Of a stretch of 64,000 nt of DNA, positions 54,637 through 58,941 are shown piece by piece (position 1 is the first letter of the stretch; each line of letters begins with the position of its first letter). The notes under the pieces are model-generated. The model was not told the DNA's origin, did no database searches, and was given only the letters and a program-made list of their open reading frames with translations. The stretch lies in the NCBI RefSeq assembly GCF_003334315.1, contig NZ_QOWR01000011.1; one strand, written 5' to 3'. This DNA comes from Escherichia coli. GTDB lineage: Bacteria; Pseudomonadota; Gammaproteobacteria; Enterobacterales; Enterobacteriaceae. Position numbers and translations under genes: made by a program.

Positions 54637-55821
54637 TTAAACGGGCTGCCCCTGATGCGACATCCGCGTCGCCAGCGGCAGCCAGCACAGCACGATCAAC
54701 AATCCCATTAAGGTCATCAACAACCCCAGGCTGCCCTGACCGGTTTGCGGCAACATCGCAGAGAGCGACGCCAGCACGCCGGAACCAATGTTTTGCAGAC
54801 CGCCGACCAGCGCGCCAGCCGTGCCCGCCAGGAAGGGGAACGGCTCCATCGCGCCGCTGGTCGCCAGCGGAAACAGCATCCCGGCACCGAAAAAGAACAG
54901 CGCGGCGGGAACGAGCAGCGTCCAGACATTCATCACGCCAAACCAGTCGGGGATCCACATCAGCAAGCCAGCCAGCAGGCAGCAGATAACCGACTGCCAC
55001 ATTAACGTGGAGAAGCGTTTATTGGGACGTCCGGCAAACCATGCGCCAAAAAACGCTGCCGGAATCGGCAGAATAAACAAAATACTGACCGTCATACTGC
55101 TCAGCCCTAACACCGCGCCCATCAGCACGCCGGAGCAGGCTTCAAAGGCGGCAATCCCGGCCAGACCGCCAATCAGCATCAGCAAATAACAGTTAAAACC
55201 GCTGTTACCGAAAAGCGTTTTATAACTGGTAAGCAGGCGCGTGCGCGGTGCATCGACCGGACGCGTTTCCGGCATCCAGCGGGCCATACTGAAGGTCACA
55301 CCAGCACAAAGAACCAACAAAAAGAGATAACAGGCGCGCCAGTTCCACATCGTATCCAGCAGACCGCCGATTAGCGGTGCGAGCAACGGACTGACGAGAA
55401 TCCCCATGTTTAACAGGCTGTTAGCATGGCGCAACTGTGTCCGTTCATATAAATCTCGCGGTAAAGTACGCGCCATTACGCCGCCAACGCCGGTGCCCAT
55501 CCCCTGCATCGCGCTGGCGGCAATCAACACCGTCAAACTGGAGGTCGTGACCGCGACCAGCGTTGCCAGCATAAAAATGGACATTCCGACGAGGATCACC
55601 GGTCGGCGGCCCACGCGGTCGGAAATCGGGCCATAAAACAGCTGTGAGACACCGTAAGTCAGCAGATAAGCGCCCATTACGCTCTGCACCGCCCCTTCAC
55701 GGACGTTGAGATCGCGCGCCATATCGGCAATAGCTGGAATATAAATGGTTTGCGCCATCTGACCGACGGCCACGAGTAATACCAACATCAATAACAAATT
55801 GACGTTTCTTTGCCTTTTCAT
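54637..55821 (-). CDS. emrD: MFS multidrug efflux pump EmrD
   Basis: 394 aa from MKRQRNVNLLLMLVLLVAVGQ...; 12-TM MFS. Confidence 0.9.
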   Translation of the reverse strand: MKRQRNVNLLLMLVLLVAVGQMAQTIYIPAIADMARDLNVREGAVQSVMGAYLLTYGVSQLFYGPISDRVGRRPVILVGMSIFMLATLVAVTTSSLTVLIAASAMQGMGTGVGGVMARTLPRDLYERTQLRHANSLLNMGILVSPLLAPLIGGLLDTMWNWRACYLFLLVLCAGVTFSMARWMPETRPVDAPRTRLLTSYKTLFGNSGFNCYLLMLIGGLAGIAAFEACSGVLMGAVLGLSSMTVSILFILPIPAAFFGAWFAGRPNKRFSTLMWQSVICCLLAGLLMWIPDWFGVMNVWTLLVPAALFFFGAGMLFPLATSGAMEPFPFLAGTAGALVGGLQNIGSGVLASLSAMLPQTGQGSLGLLMTLMGLLIVLCWLPLATRMSHQGQPV

Positions 55822-55995
55822 TATCACGGATGCTTTTATAAAAATAATTAGAATAAGTCACTACGCATTCCCATAAATGCGGGAGAGGAATCTATCACAT
55901 TGATGAATGTTAGCCAGATATACGCCAGGAATGGGGAATTGTTTAGCGGCAGAATATGTAAACAAAAGCGGCAATAAATGTTGCCGGGAGAGATG

Positions 55996-56033
55996 GTAGG
56001 GCGGATAAGATGCGTCAGCATCGCATCCGACAC
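55996..56033. repeat. REP-like palindromic unit
   Basis: gtagggcggataagatgcgtcagcatcgcatccgacacc matches the REP consensus. Confidence 0.6.
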
Positions 56034-56052
56034 CAACCCGCACGCTAAATAT

Positions 56053-56083
56053 AAAAGGGGAGCGGTTTCCCGCTCCCCTTTGG
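56053..56083 (-). terminator. Rho-independent terminator of tisAB
   Basis: Minus strand: aaaggggagcgggaaaccgctcccctttt followed by atattt; immediately 3' of tisB. Confidence 0.7.
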
Positions 56084-56100
56084 TGCGACTTGAATCTGAA

Positions 56101-56190
56101 TTACTTCAGGTATTTCAGAACAGCATCAAGCAGTTGCAGTGCTGCAACAATGAGTTTGAGGATAAGAATGGCGATATCCACCAGGTTCAT
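56101..56190 (-). CDS. tisB: Type I toxin TisB (29-aa membrane peptide, SOS-induced)
   Basis: Minus-strand ORF translates exactly to MNLVDIAILILKLIVAALQLLDAVLKYLK*; SD caggag 7 nt upstream; not in the ORF track (too short). Confidence 0.92.
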   Translation of the reverse strand: MNLVDIAILILKLIVAALQLLDAVLKYLK

Positions 56191-56300
56191 ACGCGTCTCC
56201 TGTGGTTCAGGAGCACTGCCAGCTGACGTACCTTTCCGCTGCCTGTTGCCAGCTGTTGTGCACGCGGTATCTCAAGGAGAAACGTTGTGCTTGTTGACAT
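56187..56300 (-). other. tisA: tisA upstream ORF of the tisAB transcript (37 codons)
   Basis: Minus-strand ORF MSTSTTFLLEIPRAQQLATGSGKVRQLAVLLNHRRRV* whose stop overlaps the tisB ATG (ATGA); contains the IstR-complementary region. Confidence 0.55.
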
Positions 56301-56424
56301 AACACAGTGTGCTCACGCGGGGTTAAGGCGCTGACGGCACCACCCGTTTCAGCCAGGACTTAGTGCGCCGGGTAACGATGCGGCCCCCGCATAACACATT
56401 GCGTACAGTGATATTATAGAAGTT

Positions 56425-56444
56425 TACTGTATAAATAAACAGTA
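56425..56444. promoter_or_regulatory. LexA box (SOS box) controlling tisAB and the divergent istR-2 promoter
   Basis: TACTGTATAAATAAACAGTA: palindromic CTGT-N8-ACAG with AT-rich core, near-perfect match to the LexA consensus. Confidence 0.85.
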
Positions 56445-56550
56445 ATATTTGGACAAAACGCAAACTGTGATCGATACTCAACTATGCACTAAATACGTCA
56501 AAATTCGTGCCGAAATTGCGCGTTCTGCGCGGAACACGTATACTTTCAGT

Positions 56551-56625
56551 GTTGACATAATACAGTGTGCTTTGCGGTTACCAGCCGCAGGCGACTGACG
56601 AAACCTCGCTCCGGCGGGGTTTTTT
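56551..56625 (+). ncRNA. istR: IstR-1 antitoxin sRNA (about 75 nt); the longer SOS-induced IstR-2 would start upstream near the LexA box
   Basis: TATACT -10 at 56539-56544; 5' segment gttgacataatacagtgtgct complementary to tisAB mRNA (plus-strand 56293-56313); ends in GC hairpin plus U-run (56600-56625). Confidence 0.65.
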
Positions 56626-56754
56626 GTTATCTGCAATTCAGTACAAAACGTGATCAACCCCTCAATTTTCCCTTGCTGAAAAATTTTCCATTGTCTCCCC
56701 TGTAAAGCTGTGCTTGTATAAATATTGTTAAACACAAAACCAACAAGGTCCCCA

Positions 56755-56853
56755 ATGACTACTTCCATGCTCAACGCAAAACTACTACCAACTGCGCCAT
56801 CCGCCGCAGTGGTCGTCGTGCGTGTGGTGGTGGTCGTCGGCAATGCGCCGTAG
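56755..56853 (+). CDS. ivbL: ilvB operon leader peptide IvbL (32 aa)
   Basis: MTTSMLNAKLLPTAPSAAVVVVRVVVVVGNAP*: Val/Leu-rich run typical of attenuation leaders; below the ORF-track cutoff. Confidence 0.9.
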   Translation: MTTSMLNAKLLPTAPSAAVVVVRVVVVVGNAP

Positions 56854-56877
56854 GGACTGGAACAACACACGATTCCA

Positions 56878-56913
56878 AAACCCCGCCGGCGCAAACCGGG
56901 CGGGGTTTTTCGT
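56878..56913 (+). terminator. ilvB attenuator (rho-independent terminator)
   Basis: aaaaccccgccggcgcaaaccgggcggggtttttcgttt. Confidence 0.8.
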
Positions 56914-56958
56914 TTAAGCACCTCCCGGAAAGTCGGCCCAGAAGAAAAGGACTGGAGC

Positions 56959-58647
56959 ATGGCAAGTTCGGGCACAACATCGACGCGTAAGCGCTTTACC
57001 GGCGCAGAATTTATCGTTCATTTCCTGGAACAGCAGGGCATTAAGATTGTGACAGGCATTCCGGGCGGTTCTATCCTGCCTGTTTACGATGCCTTAAGCC
57101 AAAGCACGCAAATCCGCCATATTCTGGCCCGTCATGAACAGGGCGCGGGCTTTATCGCTCAGGGAATGGCGCGCACCGACGGTAAACCGGCGGTCTGTAT
57201 GGCCTGTAGCGGACCGGGTGCGACTAACCTGGTGACCGCCATTGCCGATGCGCGGCTGGACTCCATCCCGCTGATTTGCATCACTGGTCAGGTTCCCGCC
57301 TCGATGATCGGCACCGACGCCTTCCAGGAAGTGGACACCTACGGCATCTCTATCCCCATCACCAAACACAACTATCTGGTCAGACATATCGAAGAACTCC
57401 CGCAGGTCATGAGCGATGCCTTCCGCATTGCGCAATCAGGCCGCCCAGGCCCGGTGTGGATAGACATTCCTAAGGATGTGCAAACGGCAGTTTTTGAGAT
57501 TGAAACACAGCCCGCTATGGCAGAAAAAGCCGCCGCCCCCGCCTTTAGCGAAGAAAGCATTCGTGACGCAGCGGCGATGATTAACGCTGCCAAACGCCCG
57601 GTGCTTTATCTGGGCGGCGGTGTGATCAATGCGCCCGCACGGGTGCGTGAACTGGCGGAGAAAGCGCAACTGCCTACCACCATGACTTTAATGGCGCTGG
57701 GCATGTTGCCAAAAGCGCATCCGTTGTCGCTGGGTATGCTGGGGATGCACGGCGTGCGCAGCACCAACTATATTTTGCAGGAGGCGGATTTGTTGATAGT
57801 GCTCGGTGCGCGTTTTGATGACCGGGCGATTGGCAAAACCGAGCAGTTCTGTCCGAATGCCAAAATCATTCATGTCGATATCGACCGTGCAGAGCTGGGT
57901 AAAATCAAGCAGCCGCACGTGGCGATTCAGGCGGATGTTGATGACGTGCTGGCGCAGTTGATCCCGCTGGTGGAAGCGCAACCGCGTGCAGAGTGGCACC
58001 AGTTGGTAGCGGATTTGCAGCGTGAGTTTCCGTGTCCAATCCCGAAAGCGTGCGATCCGTTAAGCCATTACGGCCTGATCAACGCCGTTGCCGCCTGTGT
58101 CGATGACAATGCAATTATCACCACCGACGTTGGTCAGCATCAGATGTGGACCGCGCAAGCTTATCCGCTCAATCGCCCACGCCAGTGGCTGACCTCCGGT
58201 GGGCTGGGCACGATGGGTTTTGGCCTGCCTGCGGCGATTGGCGCTGCGCTGGCGAACCCGGATCGCAAAGTGTTGTGTTTCTCCGGCGACGGCAGCCTGA
58301 TGATGAATATTCAGGAGATGGCGACCGCCAGTGAAAATCAGCTGGATGTCAAAATCATTCTGATGAACAACGAAGCGCTGGGGCTGGTGCATCAGCAACA
58401 GAGTCTGTTCTACGAGCAAGGCGTTTTTGCCGCCACCTATCCGGGCAAAATCAACTTTATGCAGATTGCCGCCGGATTCGGCCTCGAAACCTGTGATTTG
58501 AATAACGAAGCCGATCCGCAGGCTTCATTGCAGGAAATCATCAATCGCCCTGGCCCGGCGCTGATCCATGTGCGCATTGATGCCGAAGAAAAAGTTTACC
58601 CGATGGTGCCGCCAGGTGCGGCGAATACTGAAATGGTGGGGGAATAA
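56959..58647 (+). CDS. ilvB: Acetolactate synthase I large subunit
   Basis: 562-aa ThDP-dependent enzyme ORF (GDGS...MNIQE ThDP-binding region). Confidence 0.93.
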   Translation: MASSGTTSTRKRFTGAEFIVHFLEQQGIKIVTGIPGGSILPVYDALSQSTQIRHILARHEQGAGFIAQGMARTDGKPAVCMACSGPGATNLVTAIADARLDSIPLICITGQVPASMIGTDAFQEVDTYGISIPITKHNYLVRHIEELPQVMSDAFRIAQSGRPGPVWIDIPKDVQTAVFEIETQPAMAEKAAAPAFSEESIRDAAAMINAAKRPVLYLGGGVINAPARVRELAEKAQLPTTMTLMALGMLPKAHPLSLGMLGMHGVRSTNYILQEADLLIVLGARFDDRAIGKTEQFCPNAKIIHVDIDRAELGKIKQPHVAIQADVDDVLAQLIPLVEAQPRAEWHQLVADLQREFPCPIPKACDPLSHYGLINAVAACVDDNAIITTDVGQHQMWTAQAYPLNRPRQWLTSGGLGTMGFGLPAAIGAALANPDRKVLCFSGDGSLMMNIQEMATASENQLDVKIILMNNEALGLVHQQQSLFYEQGVFAATYPGKINFMQIAAGFGLETCDLNNEADPQASLQEIINRPGPALIHVRIDAEEKVYPMVPPGAANTEMVGE

Positions 58648-58650
58648 GCC

Positions 58651-58941
58651 ATGCAAAACACAACTCATGACAACGTAATTCTGGAGCTCACCGTTCGCAA
58701 CCATCCGGGCGTAATGACCCACGTTTGTGGCCTTTTTGCCCGCCGCGCTTTTAACGTTGAAGGCATTCTTTGTCTGCCGATTCAGGACAGCGACAAAAGC
58801 CATATCTGGCTACTGGTCAATGACGACCAGCGTCTGGAGCAGATGATAAGCCAAATCGATAAGCTGGAAGATGTCGTGAAAGTGCAGCGTAATCAGTCCG
58901 ATCCGACGATGTTTAACAAGATCGCGGTGTTTTTTCAGTAA
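58651..58941 (+). CDS. ilvN: Acetolactate synthase I small (regulatory) subunit
   Basis: 96-aa ACT-domain ORF immediately after ilvB. Confidence 0.92.

Follow-up and report, generated by a model that had tools for sequence, protein, structure and literature searches.

The ivbL leader of the Escherichia coli ilvBN operon: parts of a known Val/Leu attenuator and their conservation in Enterobacterales

The trp, his, leu, thr, pheA, and ilvGMEDA (ilvL) leaders of Enterobacteria share a common logic, in which a short ORF carries codons for the end product, hairpins compete within the transcript, and the position of the ribosome serves as the sensor. The leader of ilvBN, ivbL, is alike in these respects, with Val and Leu as its regulatory codons, whereas the other leaders use Trp, His, Leu, Thr/Ile, Phe, or Ile/Val/Leu. 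It also differs from the trp leader, where the 1:2 protector hairpin is strong, in that the equivalent hairpin of ivbL is thermodynamically weak. The leader/uORF attenuator of ilvBNC in Corynebacterium reportedly has a similar layout, i.e., alternative hairpins and, ahead of ilvB, a leader peptide whose ORF includes codons for branched-chain amino acids. Several of the enterobacterial leaders have families in Rfam, which includes Leu, Trp, His, and Thr leader families, whereas ivbL has no Rfam match: a search of 55800–57200 at an E-value threshold of 1 yielded no family matching the leader, but only istR and weak, terminator-like matches on the minus strand. The ivbL attenuator is itself a textbook element, sequenced and explained in 1982–83. 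It is described as the attenuation leader of ilvBN in two sources that cite Friden et al. (1982) (PMC3783181; PMC11347164), and the K-12 element goes back to Friden, Newman and Freundlich (1982, PNAS 79:6156), in so far as that work is referred to in PMC3783181.

The window analyzed here, i.e., the whole stretch of 64,000 nucleotides, carries this element. We put at about 0.97 the probability that it is the known ivbL leader/attenuator of E. coli ilvBN, which encodes acetohydroxy-acid synthase I, and that it acts by ribosome-mediated transcription attenuation; the element is an ordinary one, already known, and nothing contradicts the identification. Its parts and neighbors, in order along the sequence, are as follows.

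56649–56664, plus strand: putative CRP-like site CGTGATCAACCCCTCA upstream of the promoter, with a 7/10 match to TGTGA-N6-TCACA.
56691–56723, plus strand: putative sigma-70 promoter block, comprising TTGTCT (56691–96), CTGTGCTTGTATAAAT, and a −10-like TATAAA (56717–22), proposed from conserved blocks.
56730–56749, plus strand: 5′ UTR, C/A-rich, with the Shine–Dalgarno sequence AAGG, read from the sequence.
56755–56853, plus strand: leader ORF ivbL, from the ORF list, RefSeq, PF08049, and NF007579.
56782–56787, plus strand: regulatory Leu codons CUA CUA; CTACTA is invariant in 36/36 aligned leaders.
56791–56810, plus strand: hairpin A (ACUGCG...CGCAGU), between the Leu and Val codons; dG −9.8, z = −2.1, present in the RNAalifold consensus.
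56809–56838, plus strand: regulatory Val run VVVVRVVVVV, from the sequence and its conserved third positions.
56844–56893, plus strand: antiterminator spanning the UAG stop, from folding, with core pairs kept in 33–36/36 leaders.
56877–56915, plus strand: intrinsic terminator (the attenuator) with its U-tract to 56915, from folding, conservation, and a Term-seq 3′ end (PMC9023263).
56959–58647, plus strand: ilvB, acetolactate synthase I large subunit, the first regulated gene (equivalog NF006016, 1087 bits vs. a cutoff of 870; RefSeq).
58651–58941, plus strand: ilvN, acetolactate synthase I small subunit (equivalog NF006036, 185.8 bits vs. a cutoff of 128; RefSeq).

Several lines of comparison converge on this identification. 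Many E. coli chromosomes, the K-12 derivative ER1709 among them, match region 56500–57100 at 100% identity, and the RefSeq feature “ilvB operon leader peptide IvbL” of the ER1709 record maps exactly onto 56755–56853; in that record ivbL is flanked by ilvB, ilvN, uhpA, and uhpB downstream and by tisB and emrD upstream. The peptide matches Pfam PF08049 (IlvB_leader) over residues 1–32 of 32 with E = 2.3e-20 and NCBIfam NF007579, likewise over residues 1–32 of 32, with 78.7 bits against a cutoff of 60. The ivbL stop at 56853, the ilvB start at 56959, and the ilvN start at 58651 follow one another on the plus strand. At a threshold of at least 95% identity, the 261-nt leader region is chromosomal and single-copy in 5419 of 5426 complete E. 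coli genomes. Sequence, peptide, place upstream of ilvB, and terminator are all identical to those of the E. coli K-12 ivbL–ilvBN attenuator, with no differences, and the first-pass annotation of this DNA, which had named it a classic attenuation leader of ilvBN, was correct. The identification does not change the current understanding of an element that all E. coli genome annotations include and that already serves as a synthetic-biology part; what is gained is the exact coordinates of its parts.

The leader ORF comprises 32 sense codons, as had been read initially, from ATG at 56755 to TAG at 56851–56853, and encodes the peptide MTTSMLNAKLLPTAPSAAVVVVRVVVVVGNAP, in which the motif AAVVVVRVVVVV is found. 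The Shine–Dalgarno sequence AAGG (56746–49), as read from the sequence, is spaced 5 nt from the AUG, and an AGG at equal distance is kept in relatives, in which a start codon, ATG or GTG, aligns as well. Ten Val and three Leu codons had been counted in the first-pass annotation; the Leu count is right, namely CUC at 56770–72 and the tandem CUA CUA at 56782–87 (codons 10–11), while Val codons are one fewer, nine, and this single codon, along with a hairpin spacing that was approximate, is all in which the early call erred. The nine Val codons, 19–22 and 24–28 (56809–56838), read GUG GUC GUC GUG and GUG GUG GUG GUC GUC, with a single CGU for Arg breaking the run into VVVVRVVVVV. CUA is a rare codon in E. 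coli. In a six-frame scan, ivbL is the sole place in the 64-kb window with at least nine Val per ten codons, the binomial expectation being ~6e-6, and a chance origin of the Val run is excluded. A total of twelve Val and Leu codons has also been counted for ivbL in a published study (PMC11187965).

Downstream of the ORF, the terminator stem is formed by 13 pairs between 56877–56889 and 56896–56909, nine of them G–C and four A–U, with a loop of 6 nt and a single bulged G (dG −21.6 kcal/mol, z = −3.1, equally good folds in 2/200 shuffles), and the U-tract UUUUUCGUUU (56906–56915) overlaps and follows the stem. Measured from the stop codon, the gap is 23 nt to the first A–U pair and 27 nt to the first G–C pair, which agrees with the GC-rich hairpin and T-run initially placed 25 bp downstream. 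A simple terminator scan did not call the attenuator hairpin, because its stem is bulged. Two weak, sub-threshold Rfam matches, to the Pseudomonas P6 3′ end and STnc310, fall on the minus strand at 56879–56929; they arise only from the symmetry of A-tract, stem, and U-tract, which gives the region the look of a bidirectional terminator. A Term-seq 3′ end observed in vivo, ivbL_t, is listed in the literature (PMC9023263), with termination strength scored as weak in a reporter assay (PMC9023263).

Folding of the nascent RNA up to the terminator loop yields a competing structure, the antiterminator (56844–56893), in which UGCGCCG (56844–50) pairs with CGGCGCA (56887–93) and GGG (56853–55) with CCC (56882–84), enclosing an inner hairpin of 56858–63 with 56871–77. 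Its dG is −21.9 kcal/mol with z = −4.0, and none of 200 shuffles is as stable. Nucleotides 56882–84 and 56887–89 are common to the antiterminator and the 5′ arm of the terminator, and the stabilities of the two structures are about equal. Since the antiterminator uses bases of the terminator 5′ arm, the two structures are mutually exclusive. Moreover, the final two sense codons and the stop codon UAG (56851–53) lie within the 5′ strand of the antiterminator, so that, on the folding model, the position of the ribosome would decide between antiterminator and terminator. Other antiterminator pairings, including an extended form with the second Val run, are predicted as well.

In order to follow this dependence, we folded the nascent transcript with all RNA hidden up to a point 12 nt downstream of the ribosomal A site, a procedure which is a model rather than an experiment. 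For the E. coli leader, with the A site on the Leu codons or on Val codons 19–27, six to eight of the nine nucleotides of the terminator GC arm are predicted to pair upstream, in a fold that is the antiterminator or its extended form. On the final Val codon (28), five of the nine would still be paired and the antiterminator would be partial, and on the last codons or the stop none of the nine is paired and the terminator is the sole stable structure predicted. The same switch is predicted in all 36 leaders of the comparative set described below, with 6–8/9 arm nucleotides sequestered when the A site is on a Leu codon or on one of the first nine codons of the matched Val run, and 0–3 when it is on the stop. 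Both checks proposed at the outset, namely RNA folding for alternative structures and a terminator placed to respond to ribosome stalling, thus have positive outcomes: the antiterminator at 56844–56893 competes with the terminator, and it overlaps the stop codon, with masked folding predicting the switch.

These parts suggest the following course of events. Transcription would start some 25–30 nt ahead of the ivbL AUG, with a ribosome translating the leader while RNA polymerase moves downstream. With charged Val-tRNA and Leu-tRNA plentiful, the ribosome would reach the last codons and the UAG stop (56851–53), where it would cover UGCGCCG/GGG (56844–55), the 5′ strand of the antiterminator; with the antiterminator blocked, the terminator (56877–56909) and its U-tract would form and transcription would end before ilvB. 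At low charging of Val- or Leu-tRNA, the ribosome would instead stall at CUA CUA (56782–87) or within the Val run (56809–38), leaving 56844–55 free to pair with 56882–93, and the antiterminator would sequester the GC core of the terminator 5′ arm, allowing read-through into ilvBN. We infer the kinetics of these steps, as we do the start site. Experiments on the ivbL region of MG1655, used as an attenuator part, bear on the amino-acid response directly: downstream GFP is repressed by added Val and Leu (PMC11187965), and when the Val/Leu codons are swapped for Thr or Pro codons, the response moves to those amino acids (PMC11187965).

The comparison with other ilvB leaders, likewise proposed at the outset, was based on a scan for the degenerate DNA pattern GTNx4-CGN-GTNx5 in one genome per species, which gave at least 120 loci. 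Among the matches listed, 36 loci lie upstream of a same-strand ilvB homologue (64–98% amino-acid identity), with the leader stop codon 77–164 nt ahead of the ilvB start. They come from Escherichia, Citrobacter, Enterobacter, Klebsiella, Kluyvera, Leclercia, Kosakonia, Pluralibacter, Cedecea, Serratia, Yersinia, Dickeya, Pectobacterium, Brenneria, Morganella, and others besides; the sample was chosen via the Val-run pattern and is therefore biased toward close relatives. The geometry of the E. coli leader is predicted in the 35 other Enterobacterales leaders as well. The leader peptides share a common core, ...LL.TA...AAVVVVRVVVVVG.AP, and have a variable N-terminal part. Invariant blocks of the 36-leader alignment are CTACTA, GCGCCGTA, CCCCGCCGGCG, and GCGGGGTTT, GCGCCG is invariant too, and the non-coding stretch from the stop codon to the terminator is almost invariant.

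The RNAalifold consensus of the 36 leaders comprises hairpin A, a weak hairpin B, and the terminator. All 11 consensus pairs of the terminator are kept in 35–36/36 leaders, and the core pairs of the antiterminator in 33–36/36, without variation. Almost no covariation is seen among the 36 leaders in the antiterminator and terminator pairs, and the covariation test is uninformative here because these pairs never vary; the inner hairpin at 56858–77 shows a few compensatory changes, in a part of the alignment disturbed by indels. The antiterminator and terminator are thus invariant rather than covarying in this comparative set, and their conservation, as an alignment-based argument, is compatible with the attenuation model, not a covariation proof of it. 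Hairpin A does have a covarying pair, 56793:56808, which is C–G in 25 leaders, U–A in 10, and other in one, a count reached in none of 500 shuffles; it joins the third positions of a Thr and an Ala codon. Hairpin A may act as a pause hairpin or as the “segment 1” hairpin. Hairpin B (56817–22 with 56845–50), the candidate for the classical “protector,” has dG −10.3 and z = +0.99, i.e., no thermodynamic support, and was not accepted as an established element. The equilibrium fold of the ribosome-free nascent RNA still shows the antiterminator. A long-range pairing between the ORF start and the Val run, present in the E. coli minimum free energy fold, was disregarded, given the lack of conservation of the N-terminal codons.

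Conservation of the leader extends to synonymous sites. In the 36 species, the ivbL codons for Val, Gly, Ala, and Pro are 72–100% conserved at the third position, whereas in the control, 39 invariant four-fold codons of ilvB, the third-position mean is 60% and only 5% of columns reach 90%. That synonymous sites of ivbL are far more conserved than those of ilvB argues for selection at the level of RNA or codon choice. The nucleotides from CUACUA to the terminator, synonymous sites and spacer included, are near-invariant across genera whose IlvB is only 64–86% identical. This constraint could conceivably, though improbably, reflect a second function, e.g., the abundant terminated leader RNA of ~185 nt acting in trans, whether as an sRNA or by sponging GcvB; trans action has reportedly been demonstrated for the rnTrpL attenuator RNA of Sinorhizobium.

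Some variants of the leader were observed in the same alignment. In Yersinia, Brenneria, Serratia silvae, S. bockelmannii, and Morganella, the leader carries GTG at the position aligned with the E. coli ATG; an in-frame ATG is absent from the Dickeya and Pectobacterium leaders. The stop is TAA (UAACGGG) in Yersinia, Brenneria, Pectobacterium, Dickeya, and Morganella, with TAG kept in Serratia. In Kluyvera, ~60 nt are inserted downstream of the terminator, ahead of ilvB. The frame remains open upstream in Enterobacter cloacae, E. asburiae, and Pseudocitrobacter, giving 58–71 codons; these extensions are probably not used.

Control of ilvBN might be mainly post-transcriptional, by the sRNA GcvB and RNase E cleavage of the ivbL–ilvB transcript, with termination playing a minor part. 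Such control would accord with the reported targeting of ivbL by GcvB, for which a site near the AUG is predicted, and with the RNase E sites reported in the ivbL–ilvB interval (PMC11347164), with the C/A-rich 5′ UTR, and with the weak termination at ivbL_t in the reporter assay (PMC9023263). However, the predicted terminator/antiterminator pair and the dependence on Val/Leu codons (PMC11187965) stand regardless, which makes GcvB and RNase E an added layer rather than a replacement, and the authors themselves write that the GcvB mechanism “needs further corroboration” (PMC11347164); as a substitute for attenuation we find it very unlikely. Next to no weight can be given to a chance or independent small ORF beside an ordinary terminator of an upstream transcript such as istR, with translation and termination uncoupled: the hairpin with its A- and U-tracts does look like a generic, even bidirectional, terminator, with weak minus-strand Rfam matches of the terminator type, and terminator/antiterminator covariation is nil, but istR has its own terminator at 56600–56623 (for which reason the attenuator hairpin was rejected as that of istR), istR and ivbL are separated by a conserved promoter block, nine Val in ten codons have an expectation of ~6e-6 in the window, the order of ORF, hairpin, and ilvB recurs in 36 species (among the matches listed), the antiterminator overlaps the stop codon, and codon swaps alter the amino-acid specificity (PMC11187965).

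For the Val/Leu-responsive attenuation of ilvBN, the upstream region supplies a candidate promoter. Blocks conserved across Enterobacterales are GTGATC, within the CRP-like site, TTGTC (56691–95), and CTGTGYTTGTATAAAT (56709–23); judging from these blocks, transcription would start at about 56727–56730. A consensus promoter scan did not call the ivbL promoter. The CRP-like site CGTGATCAACCCCTCA is the best match to TGTGA-N6-TCACA within 56600–56720, and activation of ilvB by cAMP–CRP is indicated by the title of Friden et al. (1982) as it is cited in PMC3783181. The C/A-rich 5′ UTR of ivbL, AAACACAAAACCAACAAGG (56730–56748), is of the type to which the GU-rich region of GcvB binds.

Two small genes lie directly upstream of the ilvB promoter, namely the sRNA gene istR at 56496–56625 on the plus strand (Rfam RF01400, 150 bits, full length) and tisB at 56101–56190 on the minus strand, a gene for a 29-aa toxin. 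The istR stretch (56480–56700) occurs in 4396 of 5426 complete E. coli genomes, as against 5419 of 5426 for the ivbL leader. An istR-type terminator precedes the ivbL promoter in Citrobacter, Leclercia, Phytobacter, Kosakonia, and Pluralibacter. The istR terminator of E. coli, AAACCTCGCTCCGGCGGGGTTTTTTGTTATCTGC (56601–56634), appears to occur a second time, at another place, on most E. coli chromosomes: the istR-stretch query hits a median of two places per genome, one example being these 34 nt alone at 100% identity, and no second copy of AAACCTCGCTCCGGCGGGGTTTTTTGTTATCTGC lies within the 64-kb window. Farther upstream, between emrD and tisB, RefSeq annotates the small ORF ysdE (55900–55977, plus strand), which is adjoined by a weak REP-like match on the minus strand (Rfam naRNA4, E = 0.3, 56000–56032).
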